Below are positions 32,848-55,563 of a stretch of 64,000 nt of DNA, one piece after another. How positions within the stretch are numbered: position 1 is the stretch's first letter; every line of letters starts with the position of its first letter. The DNA comes from Escherichia phage EC128: the sequence record ON210139.1; one strand, 5' to 3'. A program made the position numbers and the translations under genes. The notes under the pieces were generated by a model. The model did no database searches. It was given only the letters and a program-made list of their open reading frames with translations, and was not told the origin of the DNA.

Positions 32848-33378
32848 ATGTCGCAAGCTCTGCAACAAATTTTTAACCAAGCAAATACAACTAACTTTGT
32901 AGTATCAATACCACATAGTAATACTACATCTGCTTTTACTTTAAATGCTCAGTCAGTTCCTATTCCAGGAATTAGAATACCTGTTACTGATACCGTGACT
33001 GGGCCGTTTGGATTGGGCCGAGCACAACGTCCAGGTGTTACATTTGAGTATGATCCACTCATTGTGAGATTTATAGTTGATGAAGAACTTAAATCATGGA
33101 TAGGAATGTATGAATGGATGCTAGGAACTAGCAACTATCTTACAGGTGAAAATACTGCCCAAAAAACAGGTCCTGAGTACATTACGCTTTACATCTTAGA
33201 TAATAGCAAAACTGAAATCGTGATGTCAATAAATTTTTATAAGCCTTGGGTTTCTGACCTATCTGAAGTAGAATTTAGCTACACAGAAGATTCAGACCCG
33301 GCTTTAGTATGTACTGCAACGATTCCTTACACATATTTTCAAGTAGAAAAAGATGGAAAAATTATAGCAGAAGTTTAA
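32848..33378 (+). CDS. 3: Tail completion / sheath stabiliser gp3
   Basis: Start at MSQALQQ (ATG 32848) gives 176 aa, the recalled T4 gp3 length; the track ORF starts 27 codons earlier. Confidence 0.8.
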   Translation: MSQALQQIFNQANTTNFVVSIPHSNTTSAFTLNAQSVPIPGIRIPVTDTVTGPFGLGRAQRPGVTFEYDPLIVRFIVDEELKSWIGMYEWMLGTSNYLTGENTAQKTGPEYITLYILDNSKTEIVMSINFYKPWVSDLSEVEFSYTEDSDPALVCTATIPYTYFQVEKDGKIIAEV

Positions 33379-33427
33379 TGCTTCAGTTTTGTGTGTTATA
33401 ATCTTAATTAAATTTGAGGAGAAACAC

Positions 33428-34140
33428 ATGAAACTAATCTTTTTAAGCGGTGTAAAGCGTAGTGGAAAAGATACTACTGCTGATTTTATCATGAGCAATT
33501 ATTCTGCAGTTAAATACCAACTTGCTGGTCCTATTAAGGATGCATTGGCTTATGCATGGGGAGTATTTGCAGCAAACACTGACTATCCTTGCTTAACTCG
33601 TAAAGAGTTTGAAGGAATTGACTATGATCGTGAGACTAATTTAAATCTGACTAAATCAGAAGTAATCACGATTATGGAACAAGCATTTTGCTATCTTAAC
33701 GGTAAAAGCCCAATTAAAGGTGTGTTTGTTTTTGATGACGCAGTTAATTTCGTAGCATTTAACAAGATTGCTGACGTTATAAATAATATTGAAGATCAAT
33801 GGTCAGTCCGTCGTCTGATGCAAGCCCTAGGTACGGATTTGATTGTTAATAACTTCGACCGCATGTATTGGGTAAAATTATTTGCTTTAGATTATCTTGA
33901 TAAATTTAACTCAGGTTATGATTATTATATCGTTCCTGATACTCGTCAAGATCATGAAATGGATGCGGCTAGGGCGATGGGTGCTACAGTAATTCATGTA
34001 GTTCGTCCTGGTCAAAAATCCAATGATACTCATATTACAGAAGCTGGATTGCCAATTCGTGATGGCGATTTAGTAATTACAAACGATGGTTCTCTTGAAG
34101 AACTTTTTTCTAAAATTAAAAATACACTAAAGGTACTATA

Positions 34141-34141
<1 letters not shown>
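33428..34141 (+). CDS. 1: Deoxynucleoside monophosphate kinase gp1
   Basis: Start at MKLIFLSGVKRSGKDTTADF (P-loop) after a GAGGAG RBS; about 237 aa. Confidence 0.9.
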
Positions 34142-34838
<697 letters not shown>

Positions 34839-34850
34839 TTTCACAAAGTT

Positions 34851-34890
34851 GTTTACATACTGATGAGGTAGTGATACTATTATCTCATCA
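34851..34890 (+). promoter_or_regulatory. Early promoter with stem-loop (PeSL-like) upstream of ipI
   Basis: -35 GTTTACA, -10 TGATACTAT embedded in the inverted repeat TGATGAGg...tCTCATCA. Confidence 0.6.
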
Positions 34891-34910
34891 AAATTAATTA
34901 GGAAAATAAA

Positions 34911-35198
34911 ATGAAAACTTTCAAAGAATTTACTTCTACAACTACCCCGGTTTCTACTATTACTGAAGCTACTCTTACTTCTGAAGTTATTAAAGCAAAT
35001 AAAGGACGAGAAGGTAAACCAATGATTAGTTTAGTTGATAGCGAAGAAATCAAAGGTACTGTTTACCTAGGTGATGGGTGGTCTGCTAAAAAGGATGGTG
35101 CTACAATCGTTATCTCTCCTGCTGAAGAAACTGCGTTGTTTAAAGCTAAACACATTTCTGCGGCACATCTCAAGATTATTGCTAAAAATCTTTTGTAA
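34911..35198 (+). CDS. ipI: Internal protein I (capsid-targeted)
   Basis: 95 aa ORF; N-terminal capsid-targeting leader ending ITE|A (gp21 protease site); body matches recalled T4 IPI. Confidence 0.85.
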   Translation: MKTFKEFTSTTTPVSTITEATLTSEVIKANKGREGKPMISLVDSEEIKGTVYLGDGWSAKKDGATIVISPAEETALFKAKHISAAHLKIIAKNLL

Positions 35199-35216
35199 TA
35201 AATATTTCACAAAGTT

Positions 35217-35255
35217 GTTTACATAGGGTTTTAGTAGTGATACTATTACCCTATC
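35217..35255 (+). promoter_or_regulatory. Early promoter with stem-loop (PeSL-like)
   Basis: -35 GTTTACA, -10 TGATACTAT inside the inverted repeat ATAGGGT...ACCCTAT; near-duplicate of the module at 34841-34890. Confidence 0.6.
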
Positions 35256-35274
35256 AACTACTGAGGAGAATAAA

Positions 35275-35460
35275 ATGAAACGTTGTGAATTAATTCGAAA
35301 TGTTGCTATTGCAATTTCTGCTTCTGCTTTTAGTTTTTCAATGTTTGTTGGATTTATATGTGGATTATTAACTACAGCAGAAAATGTGTTTTCACTTGTA
35401 GTAGCATTTTTAATTGGTTTAATCGCTATCGTTATGGATAAAATTTCTAAAGGTGAATAG
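35275..35460 (+). CDS. Small hydrophobic protein (two predicted TM segments)
   Basis: 61 aa ORF, GAGGAG RBS, hydrophobic stretches ISASAFSFSMFVGFICGLL and VVAFLIGLIAIV. Confidence 0.5.
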   Translation: MKRCELIRNVAIAISASAFSFSMFVGFICGLLTTAENVFSLVVAFLIGLIAIVMDKISKGE

Positions 35461-35461
35461 A

Positions 35462-35842
35462 ATGTATAAAGTGTATGCGGATTATCAGGCTAATCCATCT
35501 GAAAAGCCAGGTTGTCAAATTGGATGGGCTCATGATACTTTGCTTGAAGCAGTAGATGCTGCCCAAAAATTGGGATATAAATATGTAGAGATTGTTCAAC
35601 CGTCAGGAAAAGTTATTACTCTTGAAGAGTTCAATAATATTAAACCAAACTTTTTACTTTTTGCAGGTGATAATTATTATCCTCGTGGTGGATATGCTGA
35701 TTTAATCGCGAAAGCCGCTACCGAAGATGAACTTCGTGATATTATTAAAGAAAATGAAAATAAACCGATGTATGGTTCTAATCGTTTTGACTGGTGGCAA
35801 ATTGTAAATGCCCATACGCATACTATTGTTGATGAAGGTTGA
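35462..35842 (+). CDS. Hypothetical protein
   Basis: ORF with AGGTGA RBS before ATG 35462 (track start 35453 is 3 codons earlier). Confidence 0.5.
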   Translation: MYKVYADYQANPSEKPGCQIGWAHDTLLEAVDAAQKLGYKYVEIVQPSGKVITLEEFNNIKPNFLLFAGDNYYPRGGYADLIAKAATEDELRDIIKENENKPMYGSNRFDWWQIVNAHTHTIVDEG

Positions 35843-35844
35843 TA

Positions 35845-36132
35845 ATGATTCTTTATGCGAAAGTATCATCCATTGAAAATGGATATAAATATGATCAAGA
35901 AGCAGCTAAAGCCTTGATTGATGATTATGGCATTTTAACATATTTTGAAGTTGAAAAGGTTTACATTGACCGTTCATCTTCTCAAGTTAAATTAGTAAAG
36001 GAAGACCGTAAATTTAATACAGTAAATTTTGATTTCTTTATTGAAACAGAAAAAGGTCCTCTTGAATATGATATTTTCAAGAATCCTTTGGGTCTTGAAT
36101 GCATCGTAAATATGTATTATCATAAATGGTAA
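35845..36132 (+). CDS. Hypothetical protein
   Basis: Track ORF starts at a TTG (35839); the first ATG at 35845 has a GAAGG RBS. Confidence 0.45.
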   Translation: MILYAKVSSIENGYKYDQEAAKALIDDYGILTYFEVEKVYIDRSSSQVKLVKEDRKFNTVNFDFFIETEKGPLEYDIFKNPLGLECIVNMYYHKW

Positions 36133-36229
36133 ATATGCTTTAAGAATTATTTGTTATTATTAACTCATATCGCACTGATTAATACCCTCTATCATCAAGG
36201 GTTCTTGCTTAAGAGCCTTTGTTAATAAT

Positions 36230-36302
36230 TGGGAATTAGCCAAGTTGGTAAGGCACTGGATTTTGATTCCAGGATGCAAAGGTTCGAGTCCTTTATTCCC
36301 AG
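36230..36302 (+). tRNA. tRNA-Gln (anticodon UUG)
   Basis: Cloverleaf with acceptor TGGGAAT/ATTCCCA, anticodon loop TTTTGAT, T-arm GGTTCGAGTCC. Confidence 0.85.
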
Positions 36303-36303
36303 C

Positions 36304-36390
36304 GCGAGAATGGTCAAATTGGTAAAGGCACAGCACTTAAAATGCTGCGGAATGATTTCCTTGTGGGTTCGAGTCCCACTTCTCGCACCA
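36304..36390 (+). tRNA. tRNA-Leu (anticodon UAA), type II with long variable arm, CCA encoded
   Basis: Acceptor GCGAGAA/TTCTCGC, anticodon loop CTTAAAA, long variable arm, T-arm GGTTCGAGTCC. Confidence 0.85.
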
Positions 36391-36395
36391 AATTT

Positions 36396-36469
<74 letters not shown>

Positions 36470-36479
36470 ATTTAATTTA

Positions 36480-36553
36480 CTCCGTGTAGCTCAGTTTGGT
36501 AGAGCGTCTGCTTTGGGAGCAGAATGTCGTAGGTTCAAATCCTGCCACGGAGA
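36480..36553 (+). tRNA. tRNA-Pro (anticodon UGG)
   Basis: Acceptor CTCCGTG/CACGGAG, D-arm TAGCTCAGTTTGGTAGAGC, anticodon loop TTTGGGA. Confidence 0.85.
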
Positions 36554-36555
36554 CT

Positions 36556-36642
36556 GGAGGCGTGGCAGAGTGGTTTAATGCACCGGTCTTGAAAACCGGC
36601 AGTCGCTCCGGCGACTCATAGGTTCAAATCCTATCGCCTCCG
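36556..36642 (+). tRNA. tRNA-Ser (anticodon UGA), type II
   Basis: Acceptor GGAGGCG/CGCCTCC, anticodon loop CTTGAAA, long variable arm. Confidence 0.85.
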
Positions 36643-36644
36643 TT

Positions 36645-36720
36645 GCTGATTTAGCTCAGTAGGTAGAGCAACTCACTTGTAATGAGAAGGTCGGCGGTTC
36701 GATTCCGTCAATCAGCACCA
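36645..36720 (+). tRNA. tRNA-Thr (anticodon UGU), CCA encoded
   Basis: Acceptor GCTGATT/AATCAGC, anticodon loop CTTGTAA, T-arm GGTTCGATTCC. Confidence 0.85.
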
Positions 36721-36721
36721 A

Positions 36722-36793
36722 GGCCCTGTAGCTGGAAGGTTCAAGCAAGCGACTCATAATCGCCAGATGGTGGTTCAATTCCACCCAGGGCCA
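36722..36793 (+). tRNA. tRNA-Ile (anticodon CAU, presumably lysidine-modified as in T4)
   Basis: Acceptor GGCCCTG/CAGGGCC, anticodon loop CTCATAA; T4 encodes a CAU-anticodon tRNA-Ile (established knowledge). Confidence 0.75.
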
Positions 36794-36834
36794 TATTTTG
36801 GGAACATAAATACTCTTAGAAATAGGAGATATTT

Positions 36835-37500
36835 ATGTTCCATTACACTTATAAAATAACAAATAAAATTAATAATAAAATTTATATTGGTGTGCATTCT
36901 ACCGAAAATTTAGATGATGGATATATGGGTTCTGGTAAATTATTAAAAAGAGCCCAAGATAAATATGGTATAGAAAATTTTTCTAAAGAAATATTAGAGT
37001 ATTTTGATGATAAAGAATCTATGCTTGAAGCCGAGAAAAATATTGTCACAGAAGAGTTTTTAAATAGACCAGATGTGTATAATTTAAAACTTGGCGGTGA
37101 AGGTGGATGGGACCATATAAATATTCCTGGGATGCTAAACCAGAAGAAAGACGCTAGTTTAAAAGGAGCTAAATCGTTTAAGTCACGTTTTAAAAATGAT
37201 ATTTTACTTCAAGAAAAATATCGTAAACATGGTTCAAATGTATTTAAACGCTTGTGGTCAACTCCTGAATACAGGGAAAAATTTTTAAATAATAGCAGAT
37301 TTTTAAATAAGCATCATACTCCTGAAACTATTAATAAAATGAAAGAATCTCACGCCAGAAATAAACACCAACAGGGCGAAAAGAATTCCCAATTTGGTAT
37401 GATGTGGATTCATTCATTAGATGAAAAAGTTTCTAAACGTATTAAGAAAACTGACCCAATTCCAGAAGGATGGTTTAAAGGTCGAAAAATGAAATTTTAA
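36835..37500 (+). CDS. segB: GIY-YIG homing endonuclease SegB inside the tRNA cluster
   Basis: 221 aa ORF with GIY-YIG motif YTYKITNKINNKIYIGVHS; located between the tRNA subclusters as in T4. Confidence 0.85.
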   Translation: MFHYTYKITNKINNKIYIGVHSTENLDDGYMGSGKLLKRAQDKYGIENFSKEILEYFDDKESMLEAEKNIVTEEFLNRPDVYNLKLGGEGGWDHINIPGMLNQKKDASLKGAKSFKSRFKNDILLQEKYRKHGSNVFKRLWSTPEYREKFLNNSRFLNKHHTPETINKMKESHARNKHQQGEKNSQFGMMWIHSLDEKVSKRIKKTDPIPEGWFKGRKMKF

Positions 37501-37503
37501 TTA

Positions 37504-37580
<77 letters not shown>

Positions 37581-38477: not shown

Positions 38478-38610
38478 GGTATCTAGGCCTTTCTGGGCCT
38501 CTCTAGGCATTATTTAGTTTCTACCCTTTATAATATATTATCCTATCTTTTAATTGCCCCTCCTGACCCTAGAATTCCCTAAAACTTTTTAAAAATTTTT
38601 TCACAAAACT

Positions 38611-38645
38611 GTTTACATCCCTGTTCTTCCATGGTACTATACAAC
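38611..38645 (+). promoter_or_regulatory. Early promoter (PeSL-like module with conserved leader)
   Basis: -35 GTTTACA, -10 TGGTACTAT, followed by the leader GGTACTATACAACTATCAACTAC also present at 53388 and 55527. Confidence 0.6.
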
Positions 38646-38683
38646 TATCAACTACTGATACAGAAAACAACTTGGAGAACGAA

Positions 38684-42276: not shown

Positions 42277-42807
<531 letters not shown>

Positions 42808-42811
42808 AGTT

Positions 42812-42843
42812 GTTTACTTTCTCCTAGAATTGTGATAGTATAT
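42812..42843 (+). promoter_or_regulatory. Early promoter for denV
   Basis: -35 GTTTAC, -10 TAGTAT with upstream TG, in the 59-nt gap between e and denV. Confidence 0.55.
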
Positions 42844-42866
42844 TCACAGTTACTTGGAGGGATAAA

Positions 42867-43283
42867 ATGACTCGTATTAATTTGACTTTAGTATCTGAAC
42901 TTGCTGATCAACATTTAATCGCAGAATACCGTGAATTGCCGCGTGTTTTTGGTATAGTTCGTAAGCATGTGGCAAACGGTAAGCGCGTTAAAGATTTTAA
43001 AATATCTTCTAAATTTATTTTAGGTTCTGGTCATGTTACTTTCTTTTACGATAAGTTAGAATTTTTGCGAAAGCGTCAATCGGACATTATAACGGAATGC
43101 TTAAAACGCGGGTTCAGTATAAAAGATACTGAAGTTCCTGACATCAGCGATATTCCAGTAGAATGGAAAAATGATTATAATCCATGCAAATCAGCTATTA
43201 AGTTGAGTCAACAACGACTCGATGAAAAAATTTTAATGAAGCCACACTGGTATAAGTATTACGGCAAAAATATTTACATTTAA
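42867..43283 (+). CDS. denV: Endonuclease V (pyrimidine dimer DNA glycosylase)
   Basis: 138 aa [20 protein letters not shown]...; recognised as T4 endonuclease V. Confidence 0.95.
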
Positions 43284-50429: not shown

Positions 50430-50472
50430 GTTTACAAGTTGGCAAGGTTATGGTATAGTAATCTTGTCAACT
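50430..50472 (+). promoter_or_regulatory. Early promoter inside a stem-loop (PeSL-like)
   Basis: -35 GTTTACA, -10 TGGTATAGT flanked by the imperfect inverted repeat AGTTGGCAAG...CTTGTCAACT. Confidence 0.6.
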
Positions 50473-50487
50473 GCCAAGGAGAAGAGA

Positions 50488-50592
50488 ATGAAAGTTTTGT
50501 TTGTTGTGTATGTGATGATTCAATATAATTACCCAATGTTTACTTATAATCTGGTGAACAACATTATTGATATTATTCAAAGGAGTATGTAA
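50488..50592 (+). CDS. Short hydrophobic peptide
   Basis: 34-codon ORF MKVLFVVYVMIQYNYPMF... after a GAGAAGAGA RBS. Confidence 0.25.
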   Translation: MKVLFVVYVMIQYNYPMFTYNLVNNIIDIIQRSM

Positions 50593-53343: not shown

Positions 53344-53366
53344 TTTCAAAAATTTTTCACAAAACG

Positions 53367-53400
53367 GTTTACAAGCATAAAGCTTTATGGTACTATACAA
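53367..53400 (+). promoter_or_regulatory. Early promoter (PeSL-like module with conserved leader)
   Basis: -35 GTTTACA, -10 TGGTACTAT, and the leader GGTACTATACAACTATCAACTACTGATACAGA shared with the module at 38611. Confidence 0.6.
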
Positions 53401-53433
53401 CTATCAACTACTGATACAGATTTGGAGAATAAA

Positions 53434-55200: not shown

Positions 55201-55503
55201 ATGTTATACTCAAAGGCTCGTGAAATTTACGAAACTAAGATTAAAGAAGCTGTATTTCAGTTCGCAACGACAATGCGATGGACAAATGATTGGGAGTATT
55301 CAAAAAATCATAAGAAGCCCATGGTGACAAGAAAGGCTCATATGTTAGTGTTAATAGACCGTGAGCAGATTAAAGCCCGAGAAGCCCTCCAGAATCATAA
55401 AAAGGCTGCCTTTGAATGGTTTATGGATAACACTGCTCCTGAGACTAAGAAAGCGGTAAGCGCGTGGTTCAGTGGAAAAAATTGTGAAAGAAGTTTCTTT
55501 TAG
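55201..55503 (+). CDS. Hypothetical protein
   Basis: About 100 aa from the ATG after a GGAGG RBS (track start 55189). Confidence 0.45.
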   Translation: MLYSKAREIYETKIKEAVFQFATTMRWTNDWEYSKNHKKPMVTRKAHMLVLIDREQIKAREALQNHKKAAFEWFMDNTAPETKKAVSAWFSGKNCERSFF

Positions 55504-55505
55504 TG

Positions 55506-55540
55506 GTTTACAAGACCGTTCCTCTGTGGTACTATACAAC
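55506..55540 (+). promoter_or_regulatory. Early promoter (PeSL-like module with conserved leader)
   Basis: -35 GTTTACA, -10 TGGTACTAT and leader GGTACTATACAACTATCAACTAC. Confidence 0.6.
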
Positions 55541-55563
55541 TATCAACTACGGAGGAACAGAAA

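Follow-up and report, generated by a model that had tools for sequence, protein, structure and literature searches.

Repeats of about 70 bp carrying early promoters were first reported at both internal protein (IP) loci of the T-even phages by Repoila, Tetart, Bouet and Krisch (1994, EMBO J 13:4181), as recounted in later papers (PMC2839356, PMC12373910 and PMC4122927, the last being Comeau et al. 2014, who recall these IP-locus observations). Arbiol et al. (2010, PMC2839356) classed the T-even IP elements as analogs rather than homologs of the promoter early stem-loops (PeSLs), which are described from RB49/phi1, PST/T4 and nt-1/KVP40 (PMC2839356, PMC4122927). The PeSL authors proposed a terminator or attenuator role for the stem-loop, which for the T-even IP modules stands as a proposal only. 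Petrov et al. (2010, PMC2993671) make no mention of IP loci. A 2025 study found a separate GmrSD type IV restriction enzyme to be inhibited by each of Ip1, Ip2 and Ip3 and called the two Ip loci a hotspot (PMC12373910); since each Ip disarms a different enzyme, host range depends in part on which cassette a phage has. The mature product of ipI, IPI*, is an inhibitor of GmrSD type IV restriction (PMC3012670, PMC12373910).

We analyzed a stretch of 64,000 nucleotides from Escherichia phage EC128 (ON210139.1), hereafter the window. Its best DNA matches are Tequatrovirus records, 96-98% identical, so that the window is not T4 itself; roughly 800 records of this genus match the locus studied here. 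An earlier note on this DNA had proposed that ipI is bounded by two near-identical PeSL-like modules, each with its -10 element inside an inverted repeat, and is a swappable cassette. The wording 'PeSL-like' is right, because the IP elements are analogs according to Arbiol et al. Our analysis confirms the observation of a promoter-hairpin arrangement around ipI and supports its interpretation. The arrangement is already known, and the result is a confirmation for the field, not a discovery.

ipI lies between two copies of a direct repeat

The genes and intergenic modules of the locus are as follows.

34383-34838, + strand: 57B (Acb1, anti-CBASS), conserved left flank; Pfam PF23474 Acb1, E 2.6e-60
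34839-34910, + strand: module 1, the 57B/ipI intergenic region, 72 nt; block TTTCACAAAGTTGTTTACAT, early-promoter-like site, hairpin, Shine-Dalgarno AGGA at 34900-34903
34911-35198, + strand: ipI, 95 aa; Pfam PF11634 IPI_T4, E 6.3e-53, residues 20-95
35199-35274, + strand: module 2, the ipI/trna.4 intergenic region, 76 nt; same block (35205-35224), early-promoter-like site, hairpin, Shine-Dalgarno GAGGAG at 35263-35268
35275-35460, + strand: trna.4, a 61-aa predicted membrane protein, conserved right flank; annotated Trna.4 in T4, T2 and RB7

The gene order, which runs gene 1, 57A (PF17594), 57B, ipI, trna.4, trna.3, trna.2 and eight tRNA genes, matches that annotated in T4, T2 and RB7. The ipI product is identical to IPI of T4 GT7 at 94 of 95 residues. 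Residues 1-19 (MKTFKEF...ITE) form the capsid-targeting leader and residues 20-95 the mature IPI*; the N-terminus of the ORF, MKTFKEFTSTTTPVSTITE, is the conserved IP leader. Two counter-defence genes adjoin at 34383-35198, 57B coding for Acb1 (anti-CBASS) and ipI for the inhibitor of GmrSD type IV restriction.

The tRNA cluster occupies 36230-36793 (Gln, Leu, Gly, Pro, Ser, Thr and Met(CAT)), and an Arg tRNA follows about 700 nt further on (37504-37580). The seventh tRNA, Met(CAT) in the window, is labelled Ile in the T4 GT7 record. Relatives have up to 11 tRNAs (RB7, slur04, ECO07P3), and the tRNA region forms a second variable segment that adjoins the IP locus.

The two modules share a gapless direct repeat of 54 nt, at 34838-34891 and 35204-35257, with 45 of 54 positions identical (83%) and a start-to-start distance of 366. 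Both copies begin with the same 22 nt, ATTTCACAAAGTTGTTTACATA, and both hold the core GTAGTGATACTATTA in identical form. All nine mismatches between the copies fall in two short blocks flanking the core, which are the stem arms, ACTGATGAGG/TCTCATCA in copy 1 versus AGGGTTTTAG/CCCTATCA in copy 2, and complementarity is kept within each copy. The earlier note had placed the modules at 34841-34890 and 35207-35255, which agrees to within 2-3 nt. The strings that it quoted are correct, TTTCACAAAGTTGTTTACAT and GTGATACTATTA being found unchanged in both copies, and the alignment of the modules bears out its claim that repeats flank ipI. Its term 'near-identical' is slightly generous, given the nine mismatches in the stem arms.

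With up to 3 mismatches allowed, the window holds three copies of the 20-mer TTTCACAAAGTTGTTTACAT, the third at 38599, whereas shuffled sequences gave an expectation of 0.02. Shuffled sequence is not the strictest null, as the early promoters of the EC128 genome are alike well beyond their hexamers. As null we used all 11 early-promoter-like modules of the window, compared pairwise. Of these 55 pairs, none is more alike than the one flanking ipI, which ranks first (45/54; mean 28.9, sd 5.1); another pair, 38612/53368, matches at 43/54 and lies away from the IP loci.

These comparisons bear on the possibility that the modules are simply two ordinary T4-type early promoters, alike through an extended early-promoter consensus and without a role in gene shuffling. 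That 38612/53368 should reach 43/54, and that three sites should have TGGTACTATACAACTATCAACTA in common, is in keeping with such a consensus, whereas the first rank of the ipI pair is not. The likeness of the two modules is by itself no proof of a special role; at the level of sequence, it is the comparative evidence from relatives that proves one. The three sites with TGGTACTATACAACTATCAACTA, which stands downstream of the spacer, make up a second early-promoter subfamily (38599-38650, 53355-53410 and 55494-55550). Two of its members also have an upstream block, TTTTCACAAAAC(T/G)GTTTACA, in common, and hairpins are absent from all three sites (-1.5 to -3.7 kcal/mol).

Both repeats contain an early-promoter-like site

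Each repeat copy includes one early-promoter-like site.

34852-34880, + strand: site of module 1; -35 TTTACA at 34852-34857, spacer of 17 nt, TG at 34872-34873, -10 TACTAT at 34875-34880
35218-35246, + strand: site of module 2; -35 TTTACA at 35218-35223, spacer of 17 nt, TG at 35238-35239, -10 TACTAT at 35241-35246

The 57B stop codon abuts module 1, and the sequence upstream of the promoter, AAAATAATTTCACAAAGTTG, is A/T-rich. In both sites TG stands at -15/-14, so that the repeat holds the sequence consensus of T4 early promoters (TTTACA-17-TACTAT with TG). The hexamers match the E. coli consensus at 9 of 12 positions, in addition to TG, and represent the T4/PST variant, not the near-perfect RB49 type. 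Both sites fit TTTACW-N17-TAYWAT, the consensus given for PST/T4 PeSL promoters (Comeau et al. 2014, PMC4122927). Transcription is predicted to start at A34887 in module 1 and A35253 in module 2, 7 nt past the -10. Our literature searches retrieved no transcript data on the 57B-trna.4 locus when aimed at promoter mapping of T4 ipI, and nothing on T4 when aimed at genome-wide mapping of start sites or terminators.

The flanked interval differs among relatives

We compared the 57B-trna.4 interval in 45 loci, comprising eight GenBank phages, 36 IMG/VR loci encoding 57B relatives and the window. As listed below for representative loci (L numbers are our own handles), it holds 0, 1, 2 or 3 CTS-type (IP) cassettes, which belong to at least eight protein kinds.

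0 cassettes: slur04, L013, L014
1 cassette: the window, T4 and P8 (ipI); L039 (ip7); L040 (77 aa)
2 cassettes: T2 (ip5 + ip7); RB7 (ip5 + ipI); Lv5cm and ECO07P3 (90 aa + 102 aa); G9062 and L009 (ip5 + 77 aa)
3 cassettes: L019, L022, L024, L025, L028

Every cassette in the relatives begins with MK(T/S)(F/Y)xEF. The ip7, 90-aa and 77-aa cassettes are found alone or at any of positions one to three, ipI alone or second. In relatives with other cassettes, the last 400 nt of 57B are 97-98% identical and trna.4 is 96-99% identical at the nucleotide level. Next to a 57B protein that is 100% identical, the window has ipI, L009 has ip5 and the 77-aa gene, L039 has ip7 and L040 has the 77-aa gene alone, which means that the exchanges are recent. 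The proposal that ipI is a swappable cassette is thus upheld by alternatives between the same flanks. Repeat-bounded polymorphism, whose absence from relatives would have spoken against the earlier note, is abundant across the 45 loci.

Many more distant relatives have IP genes without a module of their own, with an ATG that overlaps the 57B stop or with gaps of 1-8 nt, so modules are not required for every cassette. The first IP gene is of this kind in L010, L015, L019, L022, L025, L026, L028, L030, L031, L033-L036 and L041. A module-less first IP gene has its ATG 4 nt ahead of the 57B end (3453 versus 3456), in overlap with the 57B stop codon, which suggests translational coupling to acb1.

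The second internal protein locus

In T4 GT7, ipII and ipIII lie between denV and e. In the window this second locus is empty: lysozyme e (42313-42807) and denV (42867-43283) are 59 nt apart, and a lone promoter module fills the gap.

42808-42866, + strand: lone promoter module in the 59-nt e-denV gap; TTTACT-17-TAGTAT with TG, 42813-42841; weak hairpin, -8.1

Within a spread sample of 30 records, 12 have an uninterrupted e-denV junction, two are interrupted by some 270 nt, which slur03 annotates as an internal head protein, and 11 match the e part only. With both canonical IP loci included, ipI is the only CTS-type ORF of the 64-kb window. In practical terms, EC128 has in the window a single CTS-type internal-protein gene, ipI, which stands next to the anti-CBASS gene acb1.

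Homology breaks and resumes within the modules

In the compared relatives the flanks are 96-99% identical to the window, and the junctions of indels and replacements between close relatives fall in the modules. The places where homology ends or resumes are few. Homology breaks right after the -35 (window 34850-34859) in Lv5cm, slur04, L040 and L032, and after the whole module and the leader codons (34927-34932) in T2, ECO07P3, L009 and L039. It resumes at the TGn/-10 core (35234-35237) in seven loci. Module 1 has an identical copy in T2, in P8 and in one further locus, and module 2 is identical from TTTCAC on to the lone 57B/trna.4 module of slur04. This lone module, 70 nt long, is base for base the predicted product of recombination between the two modules of the window within their shared 5' block.

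Several relatives have chimeric modules, in which a 5' arm from the 'B' stem is followed by a 3' arm and ribosome-binding site from the 'A' stem. The hairpins of chimeric modules are weakened (T2 ip5/ip7, -8.1; RB7 ip5/ipI, -10.1; L025 and L032, -4.9 to -7.0). Breakpoints, chimeric modules and the slur04 deletion product together identify the modules as crossover points. They bear out the earlier note's likening of the arrangement to modular gene shuffling and speak against two ordinary early promoters that merely share a consensus, as does the near restriction of strong hairpins to IP-locus modules described below. We regard this family-resemblance reading as very improbable.

One intergenic module of L025 (4174-4251) contains a tandem duplication of GATACTATTACCTCATCAA, which spans the -10 core and the 3' arm and looks like a slippage or unequal-crossover scar inside the module. 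The ribosome-binding sites of the window also differ, as that of trna.4, GAGGAG (35263-35268), contains GGAG and that of ipI is AGGA. The T4 RegB endoribonuclease preferentially targets GGAG in early Shine-Dalgarno sequences. If this holds here, the types of ribosome-binding site that travel with the 'A' and 'B' stems might differ in early mRNA decay.

A model for cassette exchange

We consider it likely that the repeats are copies of a composite intergenic module that heads every independently transcribed gene of the T-even IP locus (57B/acb1-trna.4), that ipI is an interchangeable cassette, that recombination between modules swaps cassettes and that the hairpin acts on read-through RNA. The module would consist of the stop codon of the upstream gene, the conserved block with a T4-type early promoter (TTTACA-17-TGn-TACTAT), the hairpin and the ribosome-binding site, and in IP genes it would be followed by the conserved leader codons MKTFKEF. 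Homology between phages with different cassettes stops and resumes at three conserved sub-blocks, namely the 22 nt up to the -35, the TGn/-10 core of about 15 nt and about 40 nt of ribosome-binding site plus leader. Stops and resumptions at conserved sub-blocks point to general homologous recombination between modules, which would delete, insert or replace cassettes.

For T4 recombination short homology patches of <50 bp suffice, and PeSL pairs of RB49/phi1 excise mini-circles (PMC2839356), so that for PeSLs exchange may proceed via such excised circles. Each module would give its own cassette strong immediate-early transcription, and the hairpin would most probably serve as an attenuator or 3'-end barrier on read-through RNA. 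Cassettes insulated from each other in this way could be expressed alike in any order or number.

The promoter-like core lies within a predicted hairpin

Each module can fold into a hairpin around its TGn/-10.

34861-34890, + strand: hairpin of module 1; 13 bp including 3 G.U, 5' arm 34861-34873, loop 34874-34877, 3' arm 34878-34890
35223-35254, + strand: hairpin of module 2; outer stem 35223-35229/35248-35254, inner stem 35232-35236/35241-35245, loop 35237-35240

The hairpin of module 1 encloses the TGn/-10 and ends at about +4; that of module 2 has its axis 3 nt further upstream. The RNA folds reach -14.8 kcal/mol (z -4.7) in module 1 and -15.1 kcal/mol (z -4.2) in module 2, and both enclose the TGn/-10, in agreement with the inverted repeat around each -10 that had been noted earlier. 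The stem arms, TGATGAGG/TCTCATCA and TAGGGT/ACCCTA, are AT-rich with G.U pairs. A search of Rfam (E up to 1) with 34300-37500 found tRNAs only and no match on the modules.

Strong hairpins are mostly confined to IP-locus modules. In 46 unique modules of this kind, related by descent, the MFE has a median of -12.9, versus -3.7 in the window's 9 other early-promoter-like sites (Mann-Whitney p 0.005). The sole strong exception, at 50431, has TTTACA-17-TATAGT and a hairpin round the -10 of -19.0 kcal/mol with the stem AAGTTGGCAAGGTTA/TAATCTTGTCAACTG. This hairpin folds in the register of module 1 from a stem whose sequence is unrelated, and a 34-codon hydrophobic ORF (50488-50592, MKVLFVVYVMIQYNYPMF...) follows on its 3' side. 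With this promoter-hairpin at 50431-50592, the architecture is not strictly confined to IP loci.

Among the IP-locus modules the stem has at least eight unrelated sequences and takes one of two registers, with axes 3 nt apart. These two registers led us to reject a covariation test with one fixed structure for all modules. The covariation alignment was gapless and covered 18 modules of the larger register group only, its rows being chosen for folding in that register. In these 18 modules, which were selected by register and are related by descent so that p-values overstate their independence, pairing cells amounted to 84.9% versus 73.9% after shuffling (0/500), 9 of 14 pairs had changed on both sides (1/500), and the covariation score was 0.451 versus 0.241 after shuffling (0/500) and 0.05-0.21 with the partners slid. 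The fold of the sense strand is more stable than that of the antisense strand in 36 of the 46 modules (Wilcoxon p 1.7e-4, for modules related by descent). There are 43 G.U pairs in sense folds versus 11 in antisense folds, in part forced by the fixed TG and -10 bases. Taken together, the pattern of covariation supports the predicted hairpin.

An inverted repeat in this position could also act as DNA, either as a cruciform or palindrome cut, for example, by T4 endonuclease VII, or as a protein-bound site, and so target recombination or regulate the promoter. The repeat covers exactly the stretch from promoter spacer to +4, and one inferred class of crossovers lies in the loop/-10 core, both of which speak for this reading. 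DNA-parameter folds are weak, however, at -5.4 (+) and -4.0 (-) kcal/mol for module 1 and -7.2 kcal/mol on both strands for module 2, and some crossovers fall outside the hairpin, following either the -35 or the leader codons. The arms differ wholly between variants while pairing is kept, which leaves no conserved operator sequence, and the pairing favours the sense strand through G.U pairs, which are A.C mismatches on the other strand. Action at the level of DNA is accordingly improbable in our view. We also considered an operator for a dimeric protein and rejected it for want of conservation in the sequence of the arms.

Both predicted starts, A34887 and A35253, fall within the 3' arm, so the hairpin would form only in read-through RNA from upstream, and the module's own transcript presumably cannot form it. 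Such a hairpin, placed directly after the stop codons and present in read-through RNA only, could be a strict transcription terminator that ends the 57B and ipI transcripts at each module, as in the 'promoter-terminator' reading of PeSLs; one RB49/phi1 PeSL stem-loop cut lacZ expression as much as rrnB T1 did (PMC2839356). Against this, the stems are followed by AAAATTAA and ACTACTGA, with no U-tract after either, they are AT-rich with G.U pairs, and a terminator scan of 33300-36600 called two sites, neither of them at a module. The nearest upstream TATAAATA on the + strand is at 33778, so that late transcripts would be expected to cross module 1; as IPI is packaged in the head, ipI must also be expressed late. 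We hold strict termination to be doubtful, and classical intrinsic termination at the modules is unlikely. An intrinsic terminator in the usual sense, a G+C-rich hairpin with a U-tract, was rejected on the missing U-tract and the scan.

The late-promoter motif TATAAATA is present on the + strand at 33778-33785, inside gene 1 and upstream of 57A/57B/ipI, and at 35576-35583 and 35884-35891. The motif at 33778 could feed late read-through transcription of ipI across module 1. Those at 35576 and 35884 lie within a 13-nt exact repeat, GGATATAAATATG, at the starts of the ORFs 35462-35842 and 35839-36132.

Exchange of cassettes between composite modules, with a hairpin acting on read-through RNA, is more likely than any of its rivals, whether a mere likeness among promoters, a cruciform or protein-binding site in the DNA, or strict intrinsic termination. 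On the hairpin itself we suggest, tentatively and as one possibility, that it might be a separately selected sense-strand RNA element within the -10/+1 region, with at least eight compensatory stem variants, two registers and a G.U bias. It may then serve, in read-through RNA only, as an insulator of each anti-restriction cassette, through attenuation or 3'-end protection without a U-tract, and would not be a passive by-product of the repeat. If so, the module would be a promoter-embedded, order-independent 'expression socket'.

Comparison with known systems

The module hairpin resembles Rho-independent terminators in being stable and directly 3' of a stop codon. It differs from them in having no U-tract, in its AT-rich stems and in its overlap with the promoter -10.

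With integron gene-cassette arrays, the locus shares a fixed socket in which small adaptive genes come, go and change order. Each gene is bordered by a repeated element with structure, which in integrons is the attC hairpin. The IP locus has no integrase or site-specific recombination, however, and exchange takes place by general homologous recombination. Its cassettes bring their own promoters, whereas integrons have a common Pc promoter, and the locus is not a member of this class.

The likeness to PeSLs is closer. In both, a stop codon is followed by an A/T-rich lead, -35, -10, Shine-Dalgarno sequence and start codon, with a stable stem-loop that can overlap the -10 and is variable in position in PeSLs. 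Small non-essential genes flank both kinds of element, and in both the indels and replacements that set close relatives apart coincide with the elements. In contrast to PeSLs, the IP-locus elements are built on T4 early promoters, not on a near-perfect sigma-70 consensus, and their stems are weaker, AT-rich and variable. The G-run/C-run arms of PeSLs (GN-loop-CN) are absent from the two modules of the window, a difference in the stem that the PeSL authors likewise pointed out (PMC2839356). Terminator activity and mini-circles have been shown for the RB49/phi1 PeSLs only.

The T-even IP repeats of Repoila et al. (1994), as recounted in the later papers, are the same system. They lie at the same 57B-trna.4 locus, with IP genes that carry an N-terminal leader, flanking promoter repeats and polymorphism in the number, order and identity of cassettes, for which the window has the T4-type allele (ipI alone). 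The repeat of about 70 bp is present on both sides of the IP ORF, as the intergenic regions of 72 nt and 76 nt around the 54-nt repeat. Every testable defining feature of the 1994 repeats, as these papers give them, is found in the window. Nothing essential differs from that account: EC128 has an ipI-only first locus and an empty second one, where T4 has ipII and ipIII. The IP loci are an anti-type-IV-restriction hotspot of T-even phages, and the flanking modules would explain the fast turnover of their cassettes.
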